From Clostridia bacterium (GTDB taxonomy: Bacteria; Bacillota; Clostridia; TANB77; CAG-465): a stretch of DNA of 64,000 nucleotides. The notes under the pieces are model-generated. The model made no database searches. It was given only the letters and a program-made list of their open reading frames with translations, and had not been told where the DNA came from. Location: positions 8,214 through 72,213 of the forward strand of contig JAZRSA010000020.1 of assembly GCA_045651205.1 (NCBI GenBank). The letters run 5' to 3'. A program made the position numbers and the translations under genes. Below, piece by piece: positions 404 to 63,262 of the stretch (the stretch's first letter is position 1; each line of letters begins with the position of its first letter).

Positions 404-447
404 AAGTTTAGCTTGAAAACTAAAAGCGATTAGTGTATAATAACAAA

Positions 448-540
448 AGTCGCTTAGGCAATAAGAAGTTTGTGAACCTTGTCAGGTCCGGAAGGAAGCA
501 GCAATAAATAAATTTTCTTATGTGCCATAGGCGATTTTTT
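448..540 (+). ncRNA. ffs: Signal recognition particle RNA (small 4.5S-like SRP RNA / scRNA)
   Basis: Contains the conserved SRP domain IV core GTCAGGTCCGGAAGGAAGCAGC (481..502). It is flanked by pairing arms TCGCTTAGGCA / TGCCATAGGCGA and followed by a T-run. A promoter TTGAAA-17-TATAAT with TG extension lies upstream (-10 at 436..441). The position directly upstream of dnaX is the classic Firmicute arrangement. The ends are approximate. Confidence 0.75.
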
Positions 541-577
541 GTATATGTAGATATATATAATATAAGGGGTTGAAAAA

Positions 578-7320: not shown

Positions 7321-8706
7321 ATGTTTAAAAGCATAAGAACTAGTGCTAAAGTAATGGTGTTAGTTTTAGTTATAACAACATTTGTAGTAGTAAATATACT
7401 TGTAAATTATTCGCTTACAGGTAAGTTTGGCTTTTCTATAAATCTTCCAATAGTTGTAACATTTTTCATGGTATTGCTTTTAACTATGCTGCTTATGACA
7501 GCATTCTATAAAAGCTTAATTACACCAATGAAAAAGTTAGAACGTTCTATGAAGAATTTAAGAGATGGAAAGAATGTGGATAGCAGACACCTTGCAAATG
7601 TTACTAAATTAGAAGAAATGCAACAACTAATTAATTCGTATAGCGAAATACTAAATAGTTTGCTTAAGAATAGATTTGAATTAGATAGTCAAGAAAGTAA
7701 GACATCAGTTATATTAAATAGAATGGATGATGGCGTTATTGCTTTCTCTATGCAAAAACAAATAATACATATAAATGGAGCTGCTAAAGCTTTTGCAGAT
7801 ATATCTGATGCAGATGATACTTATGAAAAGGTAATGAAAAAGCTAAAACTAAAAGTGGATTTTGATAAAGTACTATACTTATCTAACTATAAAAACCTTG
7901 AGGAAAAAGTTGAAGTAAACGACAATGTATTAAGCGTAGTATTAGTACCATACCATAATGAAAAGCTACTTCCAATGGGAGTTATTGCAATCCTTAAGAA
8001 TATTACTGAGAATGAAAAGTTAAACAATATGAGAAAAGAGTTTGTTGCAAACGTTTCTCACGAGTTAAAAACACCACTTTGTTCTATTAAAGGATATTCT
8101 GAAACAATGATGGATAGAGAGCTAGATCCAGAAGAAATAAAGAGATTTGCTAAAGTTATAAATGATGAAGCAAATAGAATGGATAGAATAGTTGCAGATC
8201 TATTACAACTTTCTAGATTTGACTATAAAAAGAATGTTTGGGATAGAAACAAACTAAATATAGATGACCTTGCAAAACAAGTTGTAGAAAACCTACAATA
8301 TGTTGCAAAAGAAAAGAAACACAACTTAAAATGTGTTGTTAATATGATACCAGGACCGGTTCTAGCAAGTAAAGATGCTATACAACAAGTTATGACTAAC
8401 ATCATATCTAACAGTATAAAATATACACCAGATGGTGGAGAGATTACTGTATATGTTGGTGCTGCCGGTGGTAAAGCATATCTTAAGTTTGTAGATAACG
8501 GAATTGGTATTCCGGAAAAAGACTTAAAGAGAATATTTGAACGTTTCTATAGAGTAGATAAAGCTCGTTCTAGACAAATGGGAGGAACAGGACTTGGACT
8601 TTCTATTGTTAAAGAAATTGTAGAAGCTCATGAAGGAACTATAGAGATGAAGAGTGAAGAAGGAGTAGGAACAGAGGTAATAGTAACTCTGCCAATAATG
8701 AGATAA
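7321..8706 (+). CDS. Sensor histidine kinase (2 TM, PAS-like, HisKA, HATPase_c)
   Basis: H-box FVANVSHELKTPL, N-box and G-boxes (DNGIGIP, GGTGLGLSIV), and two N-terminal hydrophobic helices. Confidence 0.9.
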   Translation: MFKSIRTSAKVMVLVLVITTFVVVNILVNYSLTGKFGFSINLPIVVTFFMVLLLTMLLMTAFYKSLITPMKKLERSMKNLRDGKNVDSRHLANVTKLEEMQQLINSYSEILNSLLKNRFELDSQESKTSVILNRMDDGVIAFSMQKQIIHINGAAKAFADISDADDTYEKVMKKLKLKVDFDKVLYLSNYKNLEEKVEVNDNVLSVVLVPYHNEKLLPMGVIAILKNITENEKLNNMRKEFVANVSHELKTPLCSIKGYSETMMDRELDPEEIKRFAKVINDEANRMDRIVADLLQLSRFDYKKNVWDRNKLNIDDLAKQVVENLQYVAKEKKHNLKCVVNMIPGPVLASKDAIQQVMTNIISNSIKYTPDGGEITVYVGAAGGKAYLKFVDNGIGIPEKDLKRIFERFYRVDKARSRQMGGTGLGLSIVKEIVEAHEGTIEMKSEEGVGTEVIVTLPIMR

Positions 8707-9479
8707 TGAGAATAATAGACGTACATGCACATTATGAAGATGAAGCATATAATGAAGATAAAGAGCAAGTATTTACAAAGCTTAAAGAAGCGGGCGTAGA
8801 ATTTGTAATTAATGCAGGTGCTGGAATTGAATCATCAATGGGAGCTATAGAAAATGCTAAAAAATATACCAATGTTTATGCTACCATAGGAATTCACCCC
8901 GAGTATGTGAATAATGGGGATAACATAGAGGACTTAAGAAAACTTTATGAGGATAACAAAGATAGTGGAAAGATTGTAGCAATTGGAGAAATAGGATTAG
9001 ATTATCACTATACGAAAGACTTCAAAGAAGCGCAAAAGAAATTATTCAAAGAGCAATTAGAATTTGCATACGAAGTAGGGCTTCCTGTGCAAATACATTC
9101 TAGAGATGCTAGTATAGACACAGTGGAAATCTTAGAAGCTACAGAGAAGAAACCATCTAAAATAATGTTTCACTGTTTTGATCTTAATGAACAAACAGCA
9201 AGATTTATTATTAAAAATGGATACAAGATATCTGTTGGTGGAAATATAACATATAAACGCACAGAAACGGCAATAAACGTATTAAAACAAATGCCTCTAG
9301 AAAGTATAATGACAGAAACAGATGCGCCTTATTTAGCTCCACAAAGCAAAAGAGGCACAAGAAATGATTCCTCAAACATATCTGAGGTAATAGAAAAACT
9401 GGCAGAAATAAAAGGAATGGATAAAGAAGAATTAGCAGAAGTAGTATATAATAATGCTAAAGAATTTTATGGAATATAG
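8706..9479 (+). CDS. tatD: TatD-family metal-dependent hydrolase/DNase
   Basis: N-terminus IDVHAHY, and GEIGLDYHY. 257 aa. The start overlaps the kinase stop (TAATG). Confidence 0.85.
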   Translation: MRIIDVHAHYEDEAYNEDKEQVFTKLKEAGVEFVINAGAGIESSMGAIENAKKYTNVYATIGIHPEYVNNGDNIEDLRKLYEDNKDSGKIVAIGEIGLDYHYTKDFKEAQKKLFKEQLEFAYEVGLPVQIHSRDASIDTVEILEATEKKPSKIMFHCFDLNEQTARFIIKNGYKISVGGNITYKRTETAINVLKQMPLESIMTETDAPYLAPQSKRGTRNDSSNISEVIEKLAEIKGMDKEELAEVVYNNAKEFYGI

Positions 9480-9480
9480 A

Positions 9481-9512
9481 TACCAAGCGCTGTATAGCGC
9501 TTGGTATTCTTT
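9481..9512 (+). terminator. Rho-independent terminator after tatD
   Basis: TACCAAGCGC-TGTATA-GCGCTTGGTA followed by TTCTTTG. Confidence 0.7.
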
Positions 9513-9528
9513 GTAAGTAGACATAAAT

Positions 9529-9557
9529 TTGACTAAAGTTTTCGAAAATGGTATAAT
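9529..9557 (+). promoter_or_regulatory. Sigma-A-type promoter of the kinase gene
   Basis: TTGACT (9529..9534), 17-nt spacer, then TGgTATAAT (-10 at 9552..9557). Confidence 0.6.
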
Positions 9558-9581
9558 ACTAACAGTGACTAAAAATAAATA

Positions 9582-9597
9582 ACCGTTAATTAACGGT
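9582..9597. promoter_or_regulatory. Perfect 16-bp palindrome (candidate operator or 5'UTR hairpin)
   Basis: ACCGTTAATTAACGGT lies between the predicted transcription start and the RBS GAAGGAGGG. Confidence 0.4.
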
Positions 9598-9617
9598 AAT
9601 GAAGGAGGGTTAAACAA

Positions 9618-10745
9618 ATGGATAACAAGATTAGAGAAGTAGTGAGCAACTTCAGAATTGATGGTGAACTTGTGACGGCTGAAGAGAATGCACAGGGTAA
9701 CATTAACTCTACATACTTGCTTACCTACGCTACAGTAGAAGGAAGTGCAAAGTACTTGCTTCAAAAAATTAACAGTAACGTTTTTAAGGAGCCGTATCTT
9801 GTAATGCGGAATATAGGTTTGGTTAGCAAACATATAAAAAAGAAACTTGAAACTATGCCAGAGTGTGGTTACAAGACTTTGAGCTATGTGCCAACTGTAA
9901 ACGATGAACCTATGTATACGCATATTAATGAAGCGGGCGAGAAGGAGTACTATCGTGTATACGAGTATATCGATGATTGTATTTCTTACAACAACTTTAA
10001 GGATGTAGAAAATCCTGAAGAAGTTGCATATAATGCGGGTAAATGTTTTGGAGCATTCCATATGCTTCTTAGCGATTTCCCTGTAAGTATGCTTGCAGAC
10101 ACTATTCCAGATTTTCATAATACACCTAAGCGTTTTGATGCTTTGCTTGTTGCAATTGAAAATGGAATTACAAACAGAGCTTTTGAATGCCCTGAAGAAA
10201 TTGTTTATCTTATTTCTAAGATAAAAGAATATTCTGCCATTTATAACAAACTTGGTAGAACCATCCCTGTTAGAGTAACCCACAACGATACTAAGTTGAA
10301 TAACATCTTGATGAGCACCACTACAAATAGAGGTGTGGCTGTTATTGACCTTGATACCGTTATGCCGGGTTCTGTACTCTATGATATTGGAGATGGAATT
10401 CGTTCTGCGTGTGCCAACGCTTTTGAGGATGAAACGAATCCTGCAAAGATTTTCATTAATTTAGACCTTGCAAAAGCATATATTAAGGGATATCTTGAAG
10501 AGATGGCATGTTCGCTTACTTATGATGAGGTGCGTTGTATAGGGCTTTCTATCCGCGTAATTACCTATGAACTTGCGCTTAGATTCCTTACAGACTATAT
10601 CAACGGTGATACGTACTTTAAAATTAAGTATAAGACTCACAACAAAGCAAGATTTTTGAATCAGTTTATGCTTCTTAAGGATATTGAGAAGAAAGCAAAT
10701 GAAATTGATGCTTATGTTGAACAACTTTACAGAGATGTAAAGTAA
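9618..10745 (+). CDS. nahK: N-acetylhexosamine 1-kinase-like phosphotransferase (APH/choline-kinase fold)
   Basis: The catalytic-loop region RVTHNDTKLNNILM and VIDLDTVMPGSVLYDIGD closely match what I remember of Bifidobacterium NahK (THNDTKLNNILMD ... VIDLDTIMPGS). 375 aa. Visibly GC-richer than its neighbours. Confidence 0.65.
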   Translation: MDNKIREVVSNFRIDGELVTAEENAQGNINSTYLLTYATVEGSAKYLLQKINSNVFKEPYLVMRNIGLVSKHIKKKLETMPECGYKTLSYVPTVNDEPMYTHINEAGEKEYYRVYEYIDDCISYNNFKDVENPEEVAYNAGKCFGAFHMLLSDFPVSMLADTIPDFHNTPKRFDALLVAIENGITNRAFECPEEIVYLISKIKEYSAIYNKLGRTIPVRVTHNDTKLNNILMSTTTNRGVAVIDLDTVMPGSVLYDIGDGIRSACANAFEDETNPAKIFINLDLAKAYIKGYLEEMACSLTYDEVRCIGLSIRVITYELALRFLTDYINGDTYFKIKYKTHNKARFLNQFMLLKDIEKKANEIDAYVEQLYRDVK

Positions 10746-23885: not shown

Positions 23886-24353
23886 ATGATTATACGGACA
23901 AGGCGGCTTGTATTAAGGCCGTTTGAAACAGCAGATGTAACATGGTACTACGATGTAATTAAGAATACGGATATGATAACAAGACTTAAAAGTCTTGAGG
24001 CGAAGGATGAAAGTGAAGCAAAAGAGCATATTGCTATTTTTGCTAATGGGGACTTCAAGAATGATTTTTACTGTGTCATAACAGATAAGAAGAAAAACGT
24101 TATGGGTCTCATTATTGCAGTAAGACTTACGCGGATGACGATGGATGTTTCTTATTTCTTGAAGGAGGAATATCGTCATAACGGATATATGCAAGAGGCG
24201 CTCGCTGCAGTAGTCGAAGCAATCCGTGATGAGAATCCTTTGGCGAGAATAAGACTTGAAATTGAAAAAGATAATATTCCGTCTCTTAATATCGCTAAAA
24301 GAATGTCTGCAATAATGCAGGATAATGGCGATAAATTCATGTGTTACATCTAA
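23886..24353 (+). CDS. GNAT-family N-acetyltransferase (RimJ/RimL-like)
   Basis: 155 aa. N-terminus RRLVLRPFE and the acetyl-CoA-binding region RHNGYMQEAL. Promoter TTGAAA-16-TGaTATAAT upstream. Confidence 0.7.
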   Translation: MIIRTRRLVLRPFETADVTWYYDVIKNTDMITRLKSLEAKDESEAKEHIAIFANGDFKNDFYCVITDKKKNVMGLIIAVRLTRMTMDVSYFLKEEYRHNGYMQEALAAVVEAIRDENPLARIRLEIEKDNIPSLNIAKRMSAIMQDNGDKFMCYI

Positions 24354-53227: not shown

Positions 53228-56200
53228 ATGAATATAATATTAAAAAAAGCTGTAGCAATAGTATTATTAGTGGCCATGTTAATAACACATACGCCTATTT
53301 ATGTTATTGCGGCAGCAGATACAACTCCACCTTCTGTTGTGCTTTCAGGACTAACATCTAGTACTGTTGCATACAAAGGTGAATCTATGAGCTTTAAAGT
53401 GTATTTCTCAGATGAAACAGCAATGGGAACAATAAACTTTAATGCTAACTACGTAATGTTAGTTGGATTTAAAGGAGATATTTCCGTGTCTGGAACAGGT
53501 AATACTAGAACAGTAACAATATCTAACTTAGATGATAATTCAACAACAGCAAATAAAGTAATGATTAGAGCGTCAGCTGCTAAGGATGCGGCTGGTAATA
53601 CTTCAAAAGTATTTACATCTTCTGCATTTACTATAACTGAAAGACCAGATACAACAAAACCATCAGTGGTAGTATCTAAACCTTCAGTTTCAACAATAAC
53701 AGAAGGAGGCTCTTTAACATATACAGTATCATTCTCAGACAATAAAGGAATAACAACTAATAACTTTAGTGCAAGTTATGTTTCTTTAACTGGATTTGAT
53801 GCGACAGTATCAGTAAGTGGAAGTGGAAATACAAGAACAGTAACACTTTCAAATATAACAGGAGCAGCAGATTCAGATAATAAAATATCTATAAGAGCAA
53901 ATGCTGTAAAAGACGCGGCTGGAAATGGAAACTCAGCAGTTTCTTCAACAACATTTACAATAGCTGCTGCAGATACAACAAGACCATCAGTGGTAATATC
54001 TAAATCATCAGTTTCAACAGTAACAGAAGGTGGATCTTTAACATATACAGTATCATTCTCAGACAATAAAGGAATAACAACTAATAACTTTAGTGCAAGT
54101 TATGTTTCTTTAACTGGATTTACTGCGACAGTATCAGTAAGTGGAAGTGGAAATACAAGAACAGTAACACTTTCAAATATAACAGGAGCAGCAGATTCAG
54201 ATAATAAAATATCTATAAGAGCAAATGCTGTAAAAGATGCGGCTGGAAATGGAAACTCAGCAGTTTCTTCGACAACATTTACAATAAAAGAATTAGTAAA
54301 AGATACAACAGTACCATCAGTGGTAATATCTAAACCTTCTCCTACAACAGTAGAACAAGGTGGAACAGTTAAGTATACAATTGTTTTCTCAGATGAAACA
54401 GCTCTAGGAACAATAAACTTTAACGAAAATTATGTTGCATTAGTTGGATTTACAGGAAATGTATCAGTAAGTGGAACAGGAAGCACAAGATATGTAACAA
54501 TATCTAACGTAACTGGAACAGCAGATTCAGATAATAAAATATCTATAAGAGCAAATGCTGTAAAAGATGCAGCTGGAAATGGAAATTCAGCAACAACATC
54601 AACTGCATTTACAATAACAGAGCCTGTAAAAGATACAACAAGACCATCAGTAGTAATATCTAAACCTTCTCCAATATCTGTAACAGAGGGCGGAACGGTT
54701 AAATATACAGTATCTTTTGCTGATGAGACAGCAATAGGCACAATAAACTTTAATGAAAATTATGTGGCTTTAATAGGATTTGAAGCAACAATATCAGTAA
54801 GCGGAAGCGGAAACACAAGAACAGTAACACTTTCAAATGTAAAAGGTGCTGCAGATTCGGATAATAAAATAACAATAAGAGCAAATGCTGTAAAAGATGC
54901 GGCTGGAAATGGAAACTCAGCAGTAACATCAACTGCTTTTACAATTGTTGAATCTGTAAAAGATACAACAAGACCATCAGTAGTAATATCTAAACCTTCT
55001 CCAGCATCAGTAGAAGTTGGTGGAACAGTTAAGTATACAGTTGTATTTTCTGATGAAACTAAAATGGGAACAATAAACTTTAATGAAAACTATGTAGCTT
55101 TAATAGGCTTTAATGCAACAGTTAAAGTAACAGGTGAAGGAAATACAAGAACAGTAACACTTTCAAATATAACAGGAGCAGTAGATTCAGATAATAAAAT
55201 ATCTGTAAGAGCAGGAGCAGCAAAAGATGCCGCTGGAAATTCAACAGTAGCAGTAACATCAACTGCCTTTGCTATAATCGAAACTGTAAAAGATACAACA
55301 GTACCATCAGTAGTAATTTCTAAACCTTCTCCAACATCAGTAGAAGTTGGTGGAACAGTTAGTTATACTGTAATGTTCTCAGATGAAACTAAGATGGGAA
55401 AAATAAACTTCAATGAAAACTATGTTTCTTTAATAGGATTTGATGCGAAAGTATCTGTAACTGGAACAGGAAACACAAGAGTTGTAACACTTTCAAATAT
55501 AAAAGGTGATGCGGACTCAAATAATAGAATAGCAGTAAGAGCGGGAGCAGCAGAAGATGCAGCAGGAAATAAGACTAAAGTTGTTGAATCAACAAACTTT
55601 ACAGTAACAATCCCTACAGTAAAAGACACAACAGCTCCATCTGTTTTAATTTCAAATCCAAATCCGGACACAATTGAAGTGGGTGGAACAGTTAAGTATA
55701 CAGTTGTATTTTCTGATGAAACTAAAATGGGAGCAATTCACTTTAATGAAAATTATGTTTCTTTAATAGGCTTCACAGCAACAGTTAAAGTAACAGGTGA
55801 AGGAAATACAAGAACAGTAACATTAACAAATGTTAGCAGTGCTTTAGACTCAGATAATAAAATAGCAGTAAGAGCAGGAGCAGCAGAAGATGCAGCTGGA
55901 AATAAAACAAAAGTTGTTGAATCAACTAAGTTTAAAGTTGTAGCAGCTCCAGTAAAAGATACAACAGCTCCATCTGTTACAATTTCGGCTCCAAAACCTG
56001 GAACAATAGAACTTGGTGAAACAGTTAAATATACAGTTGTATTCTCTGATGAGACTGCAATGGGAAAAATAAACTTCAACAAGAGCTATGTTAAATTAAT
56101 AGGTTTTACAGCGAATGTAATAGTAACAGGTGAAGGAAATACAAGAACAGTAACATTAACAAACGTTCAAGGAAATATAGATTCAGATAATAGAATTCAA

Positions 56201-57859
56201 GTATTAGCGGGAGCAGCAGAAGACGCAGCTGGAAACAAGACTAAAGCGGTGGAATCTAAAAACTTTACAATAGTTAAGACAGAAGAAAAAGATTCTATAC
56301 CACCAGTAGTTAAAGTAACTTCTGTAAGTCCTAAAACAATATATTCAAATGGAACAGTTAAATATACTGTAACATTTGCAGATAATATAAAAGTTACACA
56401 AGTTAACTTATACGCAAGTAAAATAAAAACAATGGGATTTGAAGCAGATATATCTGTTAAAGTAAATGGAGTAAGTTCAGCTGTAATAACACTTAAAAAT
56501 GTTAAAGGAACAGTTGGAAATAATAAATATATCGTGATTGCATCAGGAGTAGCATTAGATGCTGAAGGAAATAGATCTAAAGAAGTTGCTTCTCCAACAT
56601 TTAGCATAAACGAAAAAACAGAACCAACTCCAAATAATCCTACAAAACCAGGAACAACACCTACAAAACCAGTTGTTATCGAAAAAGTAAATTGTATTGA
56701 CGATTTAGGTTTAATAGGTGATGTAAATAAGGAAATAGATTATTTTGCATCTTGGTTAAAAGCAGAAAAAATAACTGAAGAAGATGAAAAACTTCTATTT
56801 GTACAAGAAAATAATACAGTTGTTAAGAATGATAAAATGACATATATAGTAGAATACTTTAATGGAAGTACAGCAACAGCAGAAGATGTTGTGTTTGAAT
56901 TAACATTACCATATGCAGTTGAAGTATTAGAAATAAACGGTGGCGGTAAAGTGACTAAAGCAACAGACAAAGCTACAGTAGTAACTTGGTACATGGGAGA
57001 CATAAGAGCTTATGCAGCAACATCAGGAACAGGTTATTGCAGATTGTATGTAAAAGTTAAATTCTTAGAAAATGTTGAATTAGAAGCAAGTAAAAATATT
57101 TCTGAAATATTCTATGCAACATTAAAAACAACAGCTGATGAAAATGTATCATATTCATATATGAGACAAGCGTTTGTAGATTTAACAGAAGGTAAAGTTG
57201 GTGCTTACGATAAATCATTACTTTCAATAGATGCATTAAACGAAGTAAGACCAAACGAAGAAATAACAAGAGCGGAATTTGCTAAATTATTAGTAGATGC
57301 AGGAGTTATAGCTGTAGACTACAAGAGCAAAGCATACAAAAACTTTAAAGACTATGAAATAATACCATCATATGCAAGAGCAGCTGTATCAGCACTTGCT
57401 AAAGCAGATGTAATAAAACCATATGCAGATGGAACATTTAAACCAAATAATCCAATCTTAGTGGAAGACGCAATGCAAATATTAGCAGAAGCTGCAGCAC
57501 ACATGACAAATCAAAAATTAGCAGTTTCTAAACCAGTATTCTTATATACTGAAGCTCTAACTGGAAAAGATGGAGAAGTATCACCTAAGAAAGATTATAT
57601 AATGGAATTAATGAGACAAAATGTAGTACCTAGCGATGAATCAAATCCAGATTCATACATTCTAAGAAAAGAAGCAGTAGAAATGGTTAATAGCTTAATG
57701 CTAAGAGGACCAGTAGTAAAAACTCTTAAAGAAAACGAATTAAAATTTGCTAAGGTAAGAGAAAATAATGTTGTATTCTATAATGTAGTAGAAGCTATGG
57801 AAAAAACAAACTTTGTATATGATTATAAATTATGGCAACAAATGGTGGATGTAAAATAA
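53228..57859 (+). CDS. Giant cell-surface protein: signal peptide, ten tandem Ig-like modules, beta-rich domain, C-terminal SLH-like repeats
   Basis: Signal peptide ...LITHTPIYVIAAA. Ten modules of 108-112 aa, each opening with DTT.PSV (Big_5/SbsA-Ig-like opening). Pro/Thr linker. C-terminal SLH-type motifs (EITRAEFAKLLV; FKDYEIIPSYARAAVSALAKADVIKPYADGTFKPNNPI). Promoter TTGACT-17-TAAAAT upstream. Confidence 0.85.
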   Translation: MNIILKKAVAIVLLVAMLITHTPIYVIAAADTTPPSVVLSGLTSSTVAYKGESMSFKVYFSDETAMGTINFNANYVMLVGFKGDISVSGTGNTRTVTISNLDDNSTTANKVMIRASAAKDAAGNTSKVFTSSAFTITERPDTTKPSVVVSKPSVSTITEGGSLTYTVSFSDNKGITTNNFSASYVSLTGFDATVSVSGSGNTRTVTLSNITGAADSDNKISIRANAVKDAAGNGNSAVSSTTFTIAAADTTRPSVVISKSSVSTVTEGGSLTYTVSFSDNKGITTNNFSASYVSLTGFTATVSVSGSGNTRTVTLSNITGAADSDNKISIRANAVKDAAGNGNSAVSSTTFTIKELVKDTTVPSVVISKPSPTTVEQGGTVKYTIVFSDETALGTINFNENYVALVGFTGNVSVSGTGSTRYVTISNVTGTADSDNKISIRANAVKDAAGNGNSATTSTAFTITEPVKDTTRPSVVISKPSPISVTEGGTVKYTVSFADETAIGTINFNENYVALIGFEATISVSGSGNTRTVTLSNVKGAADSDNKITIRANAVKDAAGNGNSAVTSTAFTIVESVKDTTRPSVVISKPSPASVEVGGTVKYTVVFSDETKMGTINFNENYVALIGFNATVKVTGEGNTRTVTLSNITGAVDSDNKISVRAGAAKDAAGNSTVAVTSTAFAIIETVKDTTVPSVVISKPSPTSVEVGGTVSYTVMFSDETKMGKINFNENYVSLIGFDAKVSVTGTGNTRVVTLSNIKGDADSNNRIAVRAGAAEDAAGNKTKVVESTNFTVTIPTVKDTTAPSVLISNPNPDTIEVGGTVKYTVVFSDETKMGAIHFNENYVSLIGFTATVKVTGEGNTRTVTLTNVSSALDSDNKIAVRAGAAEDAAGNKTKVVESTKFKVVAAPVKDTTAPSVTISAPKPGTIELGETVKYTVVFSDETAMGKINFNKSYVKLIGFTANVIVTGEGNTRTVTLTNVQGNIDSDNRIQVLAGAAEDAAGNKTKAVESKNFTIVKTEEKDSIPPVVKVTSVSPKTIYSNGTVKYTVTFADNIKVTQVNLYASKIKTMGFEADISVKVNGVSSAVITLKNVKGTVGNNKYIVIASGVALDAEGNRSKEVASPTFSINEKTEPTPNNPTKPGTTPTKPVVIEKVNCIDDLGLIGDVNKEIDYFASWLKAEKITEEDEKLLFVQENNTVVKNDKMTYIVEYFNGSTATAEDVVFELTLPYAVEVLEINGGGKVTKATDKATVVTWYMGDIRAYAATSGTGYCRLYVKVKFLENVELEASKNISEIFYATLKTTADENVSYSYMRQAFVDLTEGKVGAYDKSLLSIDALNEVRPNEEITRAEFAKLLVDAGVIAVDYKSKAYKNFKDYEIIPSYARAAVSALAKADVIKPYADGTFKPNNPILVEDAMQILAEAAAHMTNQKLAVSKPVFLYTEALTGKDGEVSPKKDYIMELMRQNVVPSDESNPDSYILRKEAVEMVNSLMLRGPVVKTLKENELKFAKVRENNVVFYNVVEAMEKTNFVYDYKLWQQMVDVK
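53318..56620 (+). repeat. Tandem array of ten ~324-336-nt coding repeats; copies 2 and 3 nearly identical at DNA level
   Basis: Repeat starts read at 53648, 53972 and 54302, among others. About 250 nt of copy 2 (about 53710..53950) recurs in copy 3 (about 54035..54275) with only a few substitutions. Confidence 0.9.
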
Positions 57860-57871
57860 GATAGTAGACAT

Positions 57872-57900
57872 AAAAAGTCAACAGAAATGTTGACTTTTTA
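57872..57900 (+). terminator. Terminator of the giant surface-protein gene
   Basis: AAAAAGTCAACA-GAAA-TGTTGACTTTTTT. Confidence 0.9.
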
Positions 57901-57918
57901 TTGCTTTTATGGTAAAAT
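57890..57918 (+). promoter_or_regulatory. Promoter of paralog A
   Basis: TTGACT (57890..57895, inside the 3' arm of the preceding terminator), 17-nt spacer, TGgTAAAAT (-10 at 57913..57918). Confidence 0.6.
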
Positions 57919-57942
57919 ATTAATGTATTGAGTCGGTAGTAC

Positions 57943-57984
57943 CAAGAGATAATTCGCTTGGTTGGGCAGGCGAATCATCCCTTG
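57943..57984 (+). promoter_or_regulatory. 5'UTR hairpin of paralog A
   Basis: CAAGAGATAATTCGC-12 nt loop-GCGAATCATCCCTTG (15 bp, 2 mismatches), followed by TTAATATATATATA and the RBS AAAGGAGGAT. Confidence 0.5.
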
Positions 57985-58023
57985 TTAATATATATATAAA
58001 ATATTTTAAAAGGAGGATCTCTA

Positions 58024-58917
58024 ATGAGGATTCGAAAAGACTTGGCCCTTGCATTGGCAACTGTTGAAGGACTTATGCTCGCTCTTCTGGTTGCAATGCC
58101 CGTATGGTTACTGGCAGTAATCATCACCCTTACCGTTGTCGCGGCAGCGCTTACGGTTACCACTATTTTGAACGCATGGAAGGCTTCTTATGATGCAGAA
58201 GCAAGCACTCACACTTACAGGTTCCCTATCGTGAGCTTTGTAGTTGGTGTGGTTTTCCTTGCGGCAATCACTGTAGCAATTCTTCTTGTTACTAAGAAAT
58301 TGTTCGGTTTTGCCTTGATTCCGCTTGCGGCAATTTTGGCAGCGTTGCTTGTAATAGCAATTATTAAAAAGCTTAAGATTATGCAATATATCACTGCGGT
58401 GTTGCTTGCAATTCTTGTGCTCTTCCTTGTAAGCTATGGTACGGCTTATATGGTTAAAGCTGGAGTAAATCTTAACCCCGGCTTGCAGACTTCTGCACCT
58501 GCTGGCGATGAGACTCAGAAACCCAACGATGAGACTCAGAACCCTGATGACCAAAAGCCCGGCGACGACAATCAGGTACCTGGTGACGGAAACCAGGATG
58601 GTGATGACAATCAGAATAATACTGGTGATAATACCACAAACGGCACTCCTGTTACGGTAAAAATCGATGCCCCTGATACTTTATCTTATGGCAAACCGAT
58701 TACTGTAAAACTGGAAGGCTGCACGGTGGATGACCTTGTATTCGGTAATGAGGATTTCGTTGCGATTTCCAAGGTATCCGATACGGAGGTAAGTATTATT
58801 TTGGTTGGTATTGTAAACGAAACAACCGGACAGGTAGAAATTGTTCCGGCTTCGGGATATATTACCATAACTGATAGCGTATCTGGAACGAATGTGACAA
58901 TTAATATTGTTGAATAA
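58024..58917 (+). CDS. Paralog A: polytopic membrane domain, Asp/Asn/Gln/Pro-rich linker, one ~85-aa C-terminal module (unrecognised family)
   Basis: 297 aa. N-terminus MRIRKDLALALATV, 4-5 hydrophobic helices, NLNPG, a linker, then the module VKIDAPDTLSYGKPITVKLEGC...SGYITITDSVSGTNVTINIV. Strong RBS. GC-richer codon usage. Confidence 0.8.
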   Translation: MRIRKDLALALATVEGLMLALLVAMPVWLLAVIITLTVVAAALTVTTILNAWKASYDAEASTHTYRFPIVSFVVGVVFLAAITVAILLVTKKLFGFALIPLAAILAALLVIAIIKKLKIMQYITAVLLAILVLFLVSYGTAYMVKAGVNLNPGLQTSAPAGDETQKPNDETQNPDDQKPGDDNQVPGDGNQDGDDNQNNTGDNTTNGTPVTVKIDAPDTLSYGKPITVKLEGCTVDDLVFGNEDFVAISKVSDTEVSIILVGIVNETTGQVEIVPASGYITITDSVSGTNVTINIVE

Positions 58918-58928
58918 CATTCGAGAGG

Positions 58929-58960
58929 ATCCCACGAACTTTAGGTTCGTGGGATTTTTC
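58929..58960 (+). terminator. Terminator of paralog A
   Basis: ATCCCACGAAC-TTTAG-GTTCGTGGGAT followed by TTTTT. Confidence 0.9.
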
Positions 58961-58974
58961 TGTAAACCGCTAAT

Positions 58975-59003
58975 TTGATTTTTAGCGGAATTTGTGGTAT
59001 AAT
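58975..59003 (+). promoter_or_regulatory. Promoter of paralog B
   Basis: TTGATT, 17-nt spacer, TGgTATAAT (-10 at 58998..59003). A 5'UTR hairpin CGAGC-TAATTAT-GCTCG lies at 59026..59042, followed by TTTATATATATA. Confidence 0.65.
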
Positions 59004-59087
59004 TATAATATCTTAATTTTGTTATCGAGCTAATTATGCTCGTTTATATATATATTAAATAATTATTTTTTAAAAGGAGGATTTTAA

Positions 59088-60899
59088 ATGAAAATCCAAA
59101 AGGACGTAGCCCTCGCATTAGCAACCGTTGCAGCAATCTTTGTAGCATTGTTTGCAGCATTCGTAACCATCCCTGTATGGTTCGAAGCAGTAATTATTAC
59201 TCTGGCCGTGATTGGCGCATGTTTGACCGTTAGCGAAATCGTAAAAGCTTACAAAGCATCCTACGATGAGACAGAAGGTACTTACACTTATAAATTCCCT
59301 GTACGGGCGTTTGTTATTGGTGTAGTAATACTTCTTATGATCGCAGCAATTATCCTTCTTTGCCTTAAGGCTTTGTTTGGATTTGCTTTGATCCCTGTAG
59401 CACTTCTTCTGATCACACTTTTTGTGATTGCGTATCTTAAGAATAACAAGGTTATGCAGTGGATTCTTGGCTTGCTTGTAGCAATTCTTGTAGTTGTTTT
59501 AGTAAGCTATGCAGCAGGTACTATCGTTAATAACGATGTGGACTTGAACCCTGGTATTTCTACCGAAACCACAGCTCCTGAAACTACTCCTCAGAATCCT
59601 GAGATTCAGAATCCTGAAATTAATGAGGAGGAAGACGGTAAGCCTGTTATTCCTGAGACAAAGCCTGAAGAAGAAACTCAGCCCACTGTCCCTGAGACAA
59701 AGCCTGAGGAAGATCCTAAGCCCACCGTCCCTGAGACGAAGCCTGAGGAAGATCCTAAGCCCACTGTCCCTGAAACAAAGCCTGAGGAAGATCCTAAGCC
59801 CACTGTTCCTGAAACAAAGCCTGAAGAGGATACCAAACCTGTAGAAGTAAAGATTAATGTTCCTAATGTTATGTACTATGCAGAGCCTATTACTGTAACC
59901 CTTGAAGGTTGCAAGGCAAATGATCTTTGCTTTACGGATGAGGAATATTACTCAATCGTTATTGTTTCTGAAACTGAGGTTACAATTACTCTTGTAGGTG
60001 CTGTTCTTGAAGATGGTACTGTAGAGCGTATTCCTTTCTCTAAGTCCCTTACTATTTCTGATAATGTAAGCGGTGTAAATGTTACAATCGACATTGTTGA
60101 TGAAAACGATACTACCGAACCTGAAATTCAGGAACCTGAGATTAAGGATGAGGAAGAGGAAAAGCCCGAAGACATCGTAGAAGACATTGAGAAACCTGAA
60201 GAGGAAACCGAACCTACTGTTCCCGAGACGAAGCCTGAGGAAGAAGTAATTCCCGCACCTATTGCTCCTAAGATTAATGCACCTGAAACTATTGTTTATG
60301 CAGAGCCTATTATTATTACTCTTGAAGGTATTAAAGCTGAAAACCTCAAGTTCAGTAATGAAGACTTTTTATCTATCGTTATCATTTCTGATAGCGAAGT
60401 AGAAGTAACACTTATTGGTATCGTTAATGATGCTGGTGAAGTTGAATTTATTCCGGGATCGGGTTACATTACTGTAACTGATTCTGTTAGCGGTGTCAAT
60501 GCTTATATTGAAATCGCTGAAGCAGATGAAATTATTTTCAACGAACCTGAAATCAAAGATGAAGAAGATGAGCCTGTTATTGATACTCCTGTAGTAGAAG
60601 TTGAAAAGCCTGAAATCGAGGAAGAAGTTACGCCTGTAGAAGTAAGAATTTACGCACCTGAAACAATGGTTTATGCAGAACCGGTTATCATCAATCTTGA
60701 TGGAATTAAGGCAGAGGATCTCAAGTTTAGCGATGAAGAATTTTTCTCCATTGTTATTATCTCCGATACTGAAGTTGAAATTACTTTGGTAGGCATCGTA
60801 AATGATGCTGGTGAAGTTGAATTTGCTCCTGAAGCCGGGTATGTTACTATTACAGATTCTGTAAGTGGTATTCATACAACTATTTGGATTGTTGGTTAA
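59088..60899 (+). CDS. Paralog B: same membrane domain, PETKPEEDPKPTV-repeat linker, three C-terminal modules separated by acidic spacers
   Basis: 603 aa. The N-terminal ~150 aa aligns with A and C (KDVALALATV, IPVWFEAVIITL, KASYDE, TYKFP, LFGFALIP, LNPG). Modules lie at about 59839..60100, 60258..60520 and 60632..60899. Confidence 0.85.
   Translation: MKIQKDVALALATVAAIFVALFAAFVTIPVWFEAVIITLAVIGACLTVSEIVKAYKASYDETEGTYTYKFPVRAFVIGVVILLMIAAIILLCLKALFGFALIPVALLLITLFVIAYLKNNKVMQWILGLLVAILVVVLVSYAAGTIVNNDVDLNPGISTETTAPETTPQNPEIQNPEINEEEDGKPVIPETKPEEETQPTVPETKPEEDPKPTVPETKPEEDPKPTVPETKPEEDPKPTVPETKPEEDTKPVEVKINVPNVMYYAEPITVTLEGCKANDLCFTDEEYYSIVIVSETEVTITLVGAVLEDGTVERIPFSKSLTISDNVSGVNVTIDIVDENDTTEPEIQEPEIKDEEEEKPEDIVEDIEKPEEETEPTVPETKPEEEVIPAPIAPKINAPETIVYAEPIIITLEGIKAENLKFSNEDFLSIVIISDSEVEVTLIGIVNDAGEVEFIPGSGYITVTDSVSGVNAYIEIAEADEIIFNEPEIKDEEDEPVIDTPVVEVEKPEIEEEVTPVEVRIYAPETMVYAEPVIINLDGIKAEDLKFSDEEFFSIVIISDTEVEITLVGIVNDAGEVEFAPEAGYVTITDSVSGIHTTIWIVG
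59652..59846 (+). repeat. Five tandem 39-nt (13-codon) repeats encoding PETKPEE(D/E)PKPTV
   Basis: Units start at about 59652, 59691, 59730, 59769 and 59808. The central three differ by only a few synonymous changes. Confidence 0.9.
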
Positions 60900-60910
60900 C
60901 AATTACGTCA

Positions 60911-60941
60911 AACCCCTCTAGTATCTACTAGAGGGGTTTTC
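60911..60941 (+). terminator. Terminator of paralog B
   Basis: AACCCCTCTAGTA-TC-TACTAGAGGGGTT followed by TTC. Confidence 0.9.
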
Positions 60942-60957
60942 TTGTACAGCCGTCAAT

Positions 60958-60986
60958 TTGACTTTTATGTATACTTATGGTATAAT
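60958..60986 (+). promoter_or_regulatory. Promoter of paralog C
   Basis: TTGACT, 17-nt spacer, TGgTATAAT (-10 at 60981..60986). A 5'UTR hairpin CAAGCTA-GAA-TTAGCTTG lies at 61012..61029, followed by TTTATATATA. Confidence 0.65.
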
Positions 60987-61073
60987 AATTAGTATATTAA
61001 TCCCTTTTTCTCAAGCTAGAATTAGCTTGTTTATATATACAAAAAATAATTTTTTTTAAAGGAGGATTTCACA

Positions 61074-62129
61074 ATGATGAAATTCAAAAAGGACGTAGCC
61101 CTCGCATTAGCAACTGTAGCAGGAGCACTTGTTGCTCTCTTTGCTCTCTTCGTATCCATCCCTGTATGGTTCGAAGCCGTAATCATCACCCTCACTGTAG
61201 TTGGTGGTATCATGACTGTATCTGAAATCGTAAAAGCTCGTAGAGCTTCTTATGATGAGGAAACTGAGACGTATACCTACAAATTCCCTGTTCGGGTCTT
61301 TGTTTTTGGTGTAATCATCCTCATTGCAGTCGCAGCAATTATCCTTCTTTGCCTTAAGGCTTTGTTTGGATTTGCTTTGATTCCTCTCGCAGCACTTCTT
61401 GCAACCCTTTTTGTTGTTGCATATCTCAAGAAATTGAGAGTTATGAAGTGGATCGTTGGTGTACTTTTTGCACTTCTTGTAGTTGCTTTGATTAGCTACT
61501 TCGCTGCAGTACTTGTTAACTCTAATGTTAACCTCAACCCTGGTATGTCTACAACGACTACTGAAACTACTACTCCCGAAACTGAAACCGAAGGTTCTGA
61601 GACCGTGGTTCCTGAAAAAGAGACTGATGTTCCTGAGACTGATGACTCTGAAACCGAAACTCCCGAGACTGAAGGTTCTGAAACTGATGGTTCCAAAACC
61701 GAAACTCCTGAGACTGAAGGTTCTGAACCCACTGTTCCCGATACCGAAGTTAAGAATCCTGTAGTAGAAGATGAGAAAGAAGATAACACAACCAAAAACC
61801 CTGTTGAGGAAGTTGAAAAGCCTGAGGAAACTCAGCCCACCACTCCCGAAACCGAGTTTACTCCTGTAGTAATTAAGATTGACGCACCTAAGACAATGTC
61901 TTATGCAGAGCCCATTACCATCAAGCTTGAAGGTATTAAAGCTCAGGATCTTAAGTTTGGAAATGAAGATTTCCTTTCTATCGTTATCATTTCTGATAGC
62001 GAGGTTGAAGTTACCTTGGTAGGCATCGTAAATGATGCTGGTGAGGTAGAGTTTACTCCTGGTTCTGGTTACATCACTGTAACTGATTCCGTAAGCGGAG
62101 TTCACACCACAATCGAGATTGTAGGCTAA
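61074..62129 (+). CDS. Paralog C: same membrane domain, Thr/Glu/Ser-rich repeat linker, one C-terminal module
   Basis: 351 aa. The N-terminal domain is almost co-linear with B. The linker contains TETPETEGSE twice at 15-codon spacing (about 61653..61727). The C-terminal module is closest to module 2 of B. The start could instead be the second ATG at 61077. Confidence 0.85.
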   Translation: MMKFKKDVALALATVAGALVALFALFVSIPVWFEAVIITLTVVGGIMTVSEIVKARRASYDEETETYTYKFPVRVFVFGVIILIAVAAIILLCLKALFGFALIPLAALLATLFVVAYLKKLRVMKWIVGVLFALLVVALISYFAAVLVNSNVNLNPGMSTTTTETTTPETETEGSETVVPEKETDVPETDDSETETPETEGSETDGSKTETPETEGSEPTVPDTEVKNPVVEDEKEDNTTKNPVEEVEKPEETQPTTPETEFTPVVIKIDAPKTMSYAEPITIKLEGIKAQDLKFGNEDFLSIVIISDSEVEVTLVGIVNDAGEVEFTPGSGYITVTDSVSGVHTTIEIVG

Positions 62130-62138
62130 TTATCCTAG

Positions 62139-62169
62139 ACACCTCCAACATTTGTTGGAGGTGTTTTTC
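62139..62169 (+). terminator. Terminator of paralog C
   Basis: ACACCTCCAACA-TTT-GTTGGAGGTGT followed by TTTTC. Confidence 0.9.
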
Positions 62170-62209
62170 TATGCTTTTTCAACAATATTTTCATAAACTA
62201 ATTATTCTT

Positions 62210-62226
62210 TTCGACAAACATCGACA
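62210..62226. promoter_or_regulatory. Two tandem Spo0A-box-like sites upstream of spoIIAA
   Basis: TTCGACA (62210..62216) and ATCGACA (62220..62226), 10 bp apart. TTCGACA is the reverse complement of the 0A-box core TGTCGAA. Confidence 0.45.
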
Positions 62227-62261: not shown

Positions 62262-62561
62262 ATGAAATATACATATGATGAAATTAGAAACAAATTGAAG
62301 ATAATATTAGATGAAGAAATAGATGTTAACTCGTGTAAAACATTAAGAACAATAATTGATGGATATATAATGAGATATAGTCCAAAGGTATGTGAATTGG
62401 ATTTAGAGAAAGTGTCTTTCATGGATAGCTCAGGTATTGGTTTTATAACGGGAAGACAAAATCTTGCAAAGTTGTTAGATTGTAAATTTGTATTAAGCAA
62501 TGCGAATTCAAATATAAAAAGAATGATGCAAATATACGAAAAGGCGAAAGGAAGTGTATGA
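62262..62561 (+). CDS. spoIIAA: Anti-sigma-F factor antagonist (STAS domain) SpoIIAA
   Basis: 99 aa with the phosphorylatable-serine context FMDSSGIG. Confidence 0.8.
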   Translation: MKYTYDEIRNKLKIILDEEIDVNSCKTLRTIIDGYIMRYSPKVCELDLEKVSFMDSSGIGFITGRQNLAKLLDCKFVLSNANSNIKRMMQIYEKAKGSV

Positions 62562-63006
62562 TGTGCTGAATGAGTTGTATATTAAGATAAAAGCTAAAAT
62601 GGAAAATATATCTTTGATTAGAGTTGCAGCAGCATCATTTTTAAGTAATACAAATATAACATTAGATGAATTACAAGATATAAAAACTGCGGTGTCTGAA
62701 GCTGTTACAAATTCTGTAGAACATGGTTATGAAAATGATGAAACGAAAGACATTGAGGTTGCGATGAAACTCGCTGAAATTGATCAGATGATATATTATT
62801 GGGTTAATGTTATAGATAAAGGTGTAGGTATAGAAGATATAGAACTTGCAACTACTCCAACGTATACTAATAAACCAGAATTAGAACATGCAGGTATGGG
62901 ATTTACCATAATGGAAACTTTTATGGACGAGGTGCAAATAGATTCTGATGTAGGCGAAGGAACGAGTATAACAATGACTAAGAAACTAAAAACAATAAAA
63001 TCGTAG
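62554..63006 (+). CDS. spoIIAB: Anti-sigma F factor / serine kinase SpoIIAB
   Basis: GTG start overlapping spoIIAA. [21 protein letters not shown] ... [27 protein letters not shown] closely parallels B. subtilis SpoIIAB (EIKTVVSEAVTNAIIHGY ... [21 protein letters not shown]). Confidence 0.85.
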   Translation: [150 protein letters not shown]

Positions 63007-63016
63007 GAGGAGTAAA

Positions 63017-63262
63017 ATGGAATGTGTGTATGAAAGATATATAAAAGACTTTAGATGCAAATACTATATATTAAAAGCAACTAAGGGTTATGTTGGAATT
63101 AAGATAGAGAAGGTAAATATGAACGGTATTGTGTTAGACGAATGTACTGTGGAAAATGTGGACAAAGATGAAGGAAAAGTAAGAGATTTATTAAATAGAA
63201 TAAGTAAAGGCAAAGTAACTCCTATTACTCTAAAAGATGTAATAGCAGACTGTCGTGTATAA
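63017..63262 (+). CDS. Hypothetical 81-aa protein occupying the position where sigF is expected
   Basis: GGAGGAG RBS. No sigma-70 region motifs. Followed by a large-loop hairpin with a T-run (63271..63318). Confidence 0.55.
   Translation: MECVYERYIKDFRCKYYILKATKGYVGIKIEKVNMNGIVLDECTVENVDKDEGKVRDLLNRISKGKVTPITLKDVIADCRV

Follow-up and report, generated by a model that had tools for sequence, protein, structure and literature searches.

Adhesins of the LPXTG/sortase and MSCRAMM type carry repeated immunoglobulin-like (Ig-like) domains on a proline-rich region that spans the cell wall. In a quite different field, the serine codons of sinR have a part in biofilm entry in Bacillus, and the selective charging of isoacceptors under amino-acid limitation was reportedly described by Elf et al. 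in 2003. Non-optimal codons have been found to favour translation in starvation (PMC5066624), and the amelioration and compensatory evolution of transferred genes have been discussed (PMC8461475). Both subjects bear on a set of three tandem genes, here called A, B and C, that lies in a 64,000-nucleotide (nt) stretch of a metagenome-assembled Clostridia genome (contig JAZRSA010000020.1; this whole stretch is referred to as the window). A, B and C are probably vertically inherited, clade-restricted paralogues that encode stalked, membrane-anchored Ig-like envelope proteins and whose unusual codon usage is held by selection. Their membrane anchor and their Ig-like module are both previously undescribed; the protein type itself is fairly ordinary.

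The three plus-strand open reading frames (ORFs) of 297, 603 and 351 amino acids (aa) lie where a preliminary description of the sequence had placed them. Gene A (58024..58917, +; 297 aa) encodes a five-helix anchor (aa 1-153), a stalk rich in D, N, Q and P, and one Ig-like module (58645-58911). Gene B (59088..60899, +; 603 aa) encodes the anchor at aa 1-156, a stalk of PETKPEEDPKPTV repeats that corresponds to 4.6 copies of a 39-nt tandem repeat (59652-59831, +), and three modules (59835-60101, 60255-60521 and 60630-60896, all +) with acidic spacers between them. In gene C (61074..62129, +; 351 aa) the anchor (aa 1-157) is followed by a T/E/S-rich stalk with 45-nt repeats (61620-61748, +) and by one module (61860-62126). 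Common to all three are a membrane domain of about 155 aa with five helices, a low-complexity acidic stalk and a module of about 89 aa. The N-terminal 155 or so residues align easily, and the blocks that had been listed for them, KD(V/L)ALALATV, PVW, KASYD, TY(K/R)FP, LFGFALIP and LNPG, are all present; the acidic linkers differ from copy to copy as described, and the counts of one, three and one module are borne out. The proteins end with their last module (..TINIVE, ..TIWIVG, ..TIEIVG), and the sequences of A, B and C contain no LPXTG motif. Family members carry from one module up to at least five and differ in stalk length through their repeats.

Among four genomes the A modules share 91-93% of their protein sequence, and 30-63% of the residues so conserved are written with a different codon (46-63% for five genome pairs out of six). 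Near-identity of the protein alongside such differences in codons argues for strong purifying selection and for real genes. The A module is more conserved than the flanking SpoIIAB-like (83-90%) or SLH (82-84%) proteins, and across genomes the modules of B and C are 60-81% and the anchors 61-74% identical. On these comparisons, A, B and C are protein-coding genes under strong purifying selection.

The preliminary description had proposed a horizontally acquired island as its working hypothesis, and this part of it is not supported. The family occupies the same locus in all seven readable genomes and in both deeper relatives. L001-L003 share one gene order across 20 kb (SASP, SLH protein, A, B, C, STAS, HATPase, DUF6514, rluD ... 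recA), four more loci (among L004-L008) have the family in the same slot, and the deeper relatives L011 and L012 carry a single family gene in that slot, between the SLH gene and the STAS gene. The locus was surveyed in metagenomes by means of the spoIIAB-like protein, and the family was not seen in any of 80 more distant spoIIAB loci from Clostridia (at most 56% identity); the nearest outgroup has the same STAS/HATPase pair with unrelated genes in the family's position. In a neighbour-joining tree of the anchors all A copies form one group, L012 falls outside A, B and C together, and B and C cluster by genome. The tree of the A copies agrees with the similarity order of the flanking proteins, and this agreement, together with the presence of the family in the same slot in all relatives, points to vertical inheritance.

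Were the genes a recently acquired island whose donor composition is not yet erased, their GC3 and codon usage, which are strongly unlike those of the host (the relative codon usage of family and host genes correlates at 0.22), would be explained, as would the same usage in an accessory APH gene that is found elsewhere in different, partly mobile contexts. The island reading is at odds with the identical locus in every relative found, including the deeper single-copy ones, with the congruence of the A tree and the flanks, with an anomaly undiminished after about 0.6-0.8 substitutions per four-fold site, and with the absence of any homologue elsewhere among 1.84 billion representatives. No integrase or transposase ORF and no tRNA gene was found in the window or at the family's borders, which are ordinary terminators and promoters, no dedicated search for direct repeats having been made. 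Recent acquisition is largely refuted, and we regard it as very improbable; judged by gene order and trees, the family is vertically inherited and clade-restricted.

The history of the copies appears to have begun with one gene, followed by triplication in the clade of the window, after which A became a stable orthologue and the 5' parts of B and C were repeatedly converted. The earlier proposal of an expanding family agrees with this: L011 and L012 carry a single copy, against three in the clade of the window. The anchors of B and C have a nucleotide identity of 0.72-0.96 within a genome, which equals or exceeds that between genomes for B and B (0.62-0.73) and for C and C (0.71-0.74). In the window the best B-C patch of DNA lies in the membrane domain, with an exact run of 52 nt and a 57/60 window. 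Gene conversion, which had been suggested for the modules, does occur, but it mainly affects the leaders and anchors of B and C and not the modules. The long stretches of near-identical DNA that had been reported between the second module of B and the module of C were not recovered, the two modules being 74% identical overall and 85% in the best 60-nt window, with exact matches of at most 18 and 26 nt. The L002 copies of B and C show 100% identity along a tract of about 480 nt that runs from -80 in the leader to +400 in the anchor (7940-8420 and 9920-10400), and beyond it identity collapses to background; this tract is either a very recent gene conversion or an assembly collapse.

That the composition departs from the host had been claimed from hand counts (27/60 G+C at 58021..58080, 15/60 at 57781..57840), which are exact. 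GC3 is 0.30-0.40 in A, B and C and 0.12-0.24 in their neighbours, and gene A has the strongest anomaly (GC3 0.40-0.48). The departure is more specific than the earlier term "GC-richer". Third-position A is 0.18-0.28 in the family and 0.29-0.57 in flanking genes in all four genomes, and individual codons differ far more: the share of ATA (Ile) is 0.00-0.04 in the family against 0.66-0.76 in the flanks, that of CCA (Pro) 0.00-0.04 against 0.65-0.69, TTA (Leu) 0.03-0.08 against 0.56-0.66, CTA (Leu) 0.00 against about 0.1, TCA (Ser) 0.00-0.02 against 0.35-0.42, ACA (Thr) 0.13-0.20 against 0.67-0.76, CAA (Gln) 0.18-0.50 against 0.93-1.00 and AAA (Lys) 0.28-0.39 against 0.75-0.84. AGA and GGA are likewise lowered, GAA is lowered only mildly, and GCA (0.50-0.59) and GTA (0.45-0.48) are not avoided. 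Replacement codons are T- and C-ending ones together with CAG and AAG. Since the avoided triplets are common out of frame, the avoidance acts at the level of the codon; the next base has no strong effect. EF-G, rpsB, tsf, SASP, rpsU, recA, ytfJ and the spoIIAA/AB-like genes all use host-like codons.

The near absence of TTA, CTA and TCA as sense codons explains why long ORFs run antisense to A, B and C. It is hardly credible that these (61107-62105, 60369-60902 and 58108-58554, all on the minus strand) are real genes which the lack of A-ending codons serves to keep open. The codon-aligned antisense frame is indeed nearly stop-free, and an ORF of 332 aa lies opposite C, yet ATA, CCA, CAA, ACA and AGA are avoided equally and are not antisense stops. 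Moreover, opposite A and B these ORFs are interrupted, what they would encode is junk-like and of low complexity, and the APH gene shows the same by-product.

Four-fold sites differ between the four genomes at 36-69% in the family and at 25-70% in the flanks, which corresponds, after correction for composition, to about 0.6-0.8 substitutions per site. A neutral relaxation model that starts at zero and moves towards host usage, with host-like third-position composition assumed as the equilibrium, expects about 25% CCA and 26% ATA per lineage, whereas 4/321 and 8/452 were observed (P below 1e-30). An anomaly undiminished while four-fold sites are near saturation is not the fading mark of a recent transfer, and selection against A-ending codons is the best available explanation for its persistence; the non-host usage would then be held by selection on synonymous sites.

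An ancient foreign origin would require no codon selection. Here a donor of about 45% G+C would have contributed the gene to the clade ancestor, with slow and incomplete amelioration since. The usage is like that of another probably foreign gene, APH, and in L011, the most divergent member, the anomaly is weaker, as if eroding (ATA 12/26, third-position A 0.33), CCA standing at 0/12. The four-fold sites, however, have turned over extensively (36-69% differ), yet changes to A are very rare in the boxes for Pro, Ile, Leu and Ser; the deep branch L012 retains the full anomaly (third-position A 0.16, CCA 1/19); and the most stable orthologue, A, has the strongest one. We consider this origin unlikely, and selection on the codons of the family the better account.

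Other causes of the codon usage were considered and rejected. Ordinary translational selection does not fit the highly expressed genes for EF-G, rpsB and tsf, which prefer CCA and stay rich in third-position A, and a dialect of sporulation genes does not fit SASP, ytfJ and spoIIAA/AB, which are host-like in their codons. GC-biased gene conversion does not fit the rise of T-ending codons or the fact that the non-converting gene A has the highest GC3. Avoidance of a DNA or RNA motif does not fit the frequency of the same triplets out of frame or the lack of a strong effect of the following base.

A bolder form of codon selection, which we hold to be possible though doubtful, is a private codon dialect in which selection purges A-ending codons, including the optimal CCA, in favour of synonyms that end in T, C or G, and spares the Val, Ala and largely the Glu boxes, translation proceeding by a different subset of tRNAs or by slower wobble decoding. 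If this were true, production of A, B and C would be uncoupled from general tRNA charging, so that they might, for example, still be made in starvation or sporulation; alternatively, the dialect might throttle elongation for membrane insertion. No tRNA genes were found in L001-L010.

The APH-family phosphotransferase gene of the window (9618-10745, +) has codons like those of the family (r = 0.75; ATA 0.13, TTA 0.03, CTT 0.69) and is also opposed by a long antisense ORF (9432-10283). Homologues with 60-70% identity to it occur widely among other Firmicutes, where their contexts are unrelated; one in L093 adjoins a PemK toxin and TnpV, and one in L094 has host-like codons in a 23%-GC genome. 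Near the former, in a 32%-GC Clostridia genome, lies an unrelated gene of 321 aa (L093 9412-10377, -) with third-position A 0.26, ATA 0 and CTT 0.54, and genes so poor in A-ending codons may form a recurrent minority class. In the window, a GNAT acetyltransferase gene (23886-24353, +) is lower than its neighbours in third-position A (0.27) and higher in third-position G (0.25). The dialect may ultimately be a foreign accent shared by imports and fixed by selection in the family.

The preliminary description recognised neither the membrane domain nor the module, and neither has a confident match to a characterised family. No entry of Pfam, NCBIfam, PHROGs or PADLOC was matched above threshold by A, B or C, and the sub-threshold library matches are confined to the last helix and the low-complexity linker. 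Among Pfam and NCBIfam families, no above-cut-off match to Big_1 to Big_13, PKD, FN3 or other Ig-like families was found in the three proteins, nor any match to the SLH domain or to the CbiQ/EcfT profile, "EcfT" being the single automatic label of one relative (P0031). A sequence search of the PDB returned no match for the anchor profile and none below E = 0.27 for the module profile, the match at that value, to SecA, being attributed to chance. When 5.8 billion clusters were searched by word index, 37 proteins came up, all of the same design; the module profile run against the same clusters added two fragments only, of the same family, and an exhaustive search of the 1.84 billion representatives with the anchor profile found 9 proteins in all. 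One relative, P0041 (318 aa), has a single module. All family members come from metagenome-assembled Clostridia genomes, two of them labelled sheep rectum, and the lineage is an uncultured group of ruminant-gut spore-formers.

The most distant member, P0043 (415 aa; L011 770-2017), has a different ectodomain. It is composed of a repeat stalk rich in N, Q, V and E, a Cys-rich segment with CxC and CxxC motifs and a C-terminal beta-rich domain that has no detectable homology to the module. As this ectodomain differs, the anchor can carry different cargo.

An AlphaFold2 model built from an alignment of 20 sequences places the anchor helices at residues 5-22, 27-54, 69-90, 94-114 and 118-145, with pLDDT of 73-82, whereas no block of the linker reaches a pLDDT of 40 (25-39). 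Hydropathy and the distribution of Lys and Arg in the anchor are compatible with an N-in/C-out arrangement. Provisionally, the N-terminus would lie on the cytoplasmic side, as would the loops that follow helix 2 and join helix 4 to helix 5, and the C-terminus would lie outside; the topology is provisional because a Lys-Lys pair between helices 3 and 4 breaks the positive-inside pattern. Since such a five-helix topology would leave stalk and modules outside the cell, membrane-anchored surface display, as had been hypothesised earlier, is the natural reading. The Ser/Thr/Tyr-rich loop KASYDxxxxxHTY(K/R)FP is the most conserved element of the family, kept even in its most distant members, and is modelled as a small beta-hairpin on the cytoplasmic side. 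This conserved hairpin hints at some intracellular interaction.

A model of the module alone, for which 21 diverse copies were aligned, has seven strands and a pLDDT of 90, one of five models being confident. Its best Foldseek matches are all Ig-like and all weak (TM-scores 0.36-0.54, E 3e-3 or worse): 4xvo, the Ig-like (BIg) domain of an L,D-transpeptidase; 2l04, the C-terminal Ig domain of lambda gpV; basigin; and titin. Foldseek with the full-length model against the PDB and viral libraries likewise gave weak Ig-like matches only, and for the helical domain nothing. The module models as an Ig-like beta-sandwich of an undescribed sequence type.

Each gene is its own transcription unit, as had been proposed, with a -35 box of TTGAC(T) or TTGATT, a spacer of 17 nt, an extended -10 element TGnTA(T/A)AAT and a G+C-rich terminator. 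The promoter of A (57890..57918, +) reads TTGACT, 17 nt, TGgTAAAAT and is conserved in eight related loci; that of B (58975..59003, +) reads TTGATT, 17 nt, TGgTATAAT; and that of C (60958..60986, +) reads TTGACT, 17 nt, TGgTATAAT, an extended -10 promoter with 11/12 consensus positions. The terminators lie at 58927..58959 (A), 60910..60940 (B) and 62139..62168 (C), all on the plus strand. The expression signals are kept in all loci. Near-consensus extended -10 promoters, perfect Shine-Dalgarno sequences (AAAGGAGGA) and separate terminators suggest that A, B and C are probably expressed strongly, independently and in the vegetative phase. The -35 box of A (57890-57895) falls within the 3' arm of the SLH gene's terminator hairpin (57870-57901), an arrangement kept in all relatives.

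The leaders are about 80-100 nt long. Every copy, those of L011 and L012 included, has a small hairpin some 20-50 nt past the -10 box, and between this hairpin and the Shine-Dalgarno sequence come (T/A)TTATATA and an A/T-rich stretch. The leader of A (57941..57975, +) has two overlapping hairpins (57941-57962 and 57952-57975), then a TAATATATA motif (57986-57994) and the Shine-Dalgarno sequence (58009-58017). Its two hairpins look mutually exclusive, and pairing in the second is kept through changes in relatives (ATTCGC/GCGAAT, ATTTGC/GCAAGT, TCACTTG/CAAGTGA). The leader of B (59026..59052, +) has a hairpin CGAGC..GCTCG (59026-59042), then TTTATATATA, with the Shine-Dalgarno sequence at 59073-59081; in that of C (61012..61039, +) a compensated variant of the same hairpin, CAAGCTA..TAGCTTG (61012-61029), precedes TTTATATATA and the Shine-Dalgarno sequence (61058-61066). 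The core of the stem is GAGC/GCTC, with the variant AAGC/GCTT in C of the window, and L011 has GGTCGA/TTGACC at the same place. The thermodynamics of the hairpins are marginal (z-scores -0.05 to -2.1), and Rfam gave no match on the leaders. A role of the hairpin in mRNA stability or translation control is plausible.

Upstream of A lies a 1543-aa protein gene (53228..57859, +) with repeats of the Big_12/Big_5 type, SLH (E = 4e-13), GC3 of 0.12 and host-like codons, and downstream of C (62262..63262, +) lie STAS (spoIIAA-like), HATPase_c_2 (spoIIAB-like) and DUF6514 genes; these neighbours are present in every related locus. The downstream genes had been called the spoIIA operon, and the STAS and HATPase_c_2 genes fit that name, but the third gene encodes DUF6514 (81 aa) and a pseudouridine synthase gene comes next, sigF not being in that place in the window, L001-L003 or L011-L013. 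The nearest outgroup locus, L013, thus also lacks sigF after spoIIAB. Two boxes, TTCGACA and ATCGACA, at 62210-62226 resemble Spo0A boxes in reverse orientation.

This neighbourhood bears on whether A, B and C are instead sporulation-linked membrane proteins that partner the adjacent spoIIAA/AB-like pair, for example as a platform or as a signal input through the cytoplasmic loop. The pair adjoins the family throughout, its most distant member included; no part of the anchor is more conserved than that Ser/Thr/Tyr-rich loop; and the pair is followed by DUF6514 in place of sigF. Since the whole 20-kb neighbourhood is syntenic in the clade, however, adjacency carries little information, and each gene has its own sigma-A-type promoter and terminator, including a terminator between C and the STAS gene, and in the nearest outgroup the STAS/HATPase pair occurs with no family gene beside it. 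We regard a sporulation link as improbable. At the far end of the window, Rfam found its only match, a small bacterial SRP RNA (RF00169, 70 bits) at 445-542 (+), just upstream of an ORF (578-2185) that is taken as dnaX-like from its sequence.

In the favoured reading, that of stalked envelope proteins, the N-terminal five-helix bundle would hold the protein in the membrane, and a disordered acidic stalk rich in Pro, Thr and Glu would span the wall or S-layer zone, its length shifting by gain and loss of tandem repeats. The Ig-like modules at the far end would bind some outside partner. The near-frozen module of A suggests a conserved ligand, probably some structure in the cell's own envelope; the modules of B and C, which vary more and are repeated to varying extents, suggest partners that are probably more variable and changeable. 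A sigma-A-type extended -10 promoter at each gene would give separate strong transcription units, and B and C would repeatedly overwrite each other's leader and anchor by gene conversion as module number drifts.

Several points weigh against this reading. The unrelated APH gene with nearly the same codon usage fits a shared foreign source of that usage. The neutral-relaxation test presumes a host-like third-position composition as its equilibrium; with an equilibrium taken from the intergenic A fraction of 0.37, the expected CCA would, by a rough estimate, be near 13%. As all genomes are metagenome assemblies, the identical tract of L002 could be an assembly collapse. The model of the membrane domain is of moderate confidence only, and the strong conservation of the cytoplasmic loop suggests that the anchor has a role beyond anchoring. 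For the module, just one model in five is confident and every fold match is weak (E 3e-3 or worse); its binding function and partner are pure inference.

With this locus, the known surface architectures of Gram-positive type gain a membrane anchor and an Ig-like module that were both undescribed. The locus is also a natural example of a single locus that passed from one copy to three, of which one is frozen and two are kept alike by gene conversion. For island prediction it is a caution, as a strong compositional anomaly stands alongside strict vertical inheritance. If its codon usage is truly selected, it would make a compact test case for gene-specific codon dialects in bacteria.

Compared with codon-based starvation control, the locus likewise has a small set of genes in codons that the bulk genome avoids, kept by selection; unlike there, nothing in A, B and C shows a link to starvation, and their usage is shared with the probably foreign APH gene. 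The Ig-like domains of bacteria and phages (4xvo and 4hu2 from L,D-transpeptidases, 2l04 from lambda gpV) are beta-sandwiches of about 90 residues and the best structural matches of the module model, but with TM-scores of about 0.5, 13-17% identity, E of 3e-3 or worse and no sequence-profile match. With SLH S-layer proteins such as the neighbouring one of 1543 aa, A, B and C share the envelope, tandem Ig-like repeats and a place side by side that is conserved together; they differ in being held by the membrane without SLH, in repeats unrelated in sequence to Big_12/Big_5, and in a codon usage opposite to that of the neighbouring SLH gene. The LPXTG and MSCRAMM-type adhesins are unlike A, B and C in their anchor, which in the latter is an N-terminal five-helix domain with neither LPXTG nor a cleavable signal peptide, and A, B and C end directly after the last module and have no Big, PKD, FN3 or Cna match in Pfam. 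In both, a flexible segment rich in Pro, Thr and Glu lifts tandem Ig-like modules whose repeat number varies between strains.

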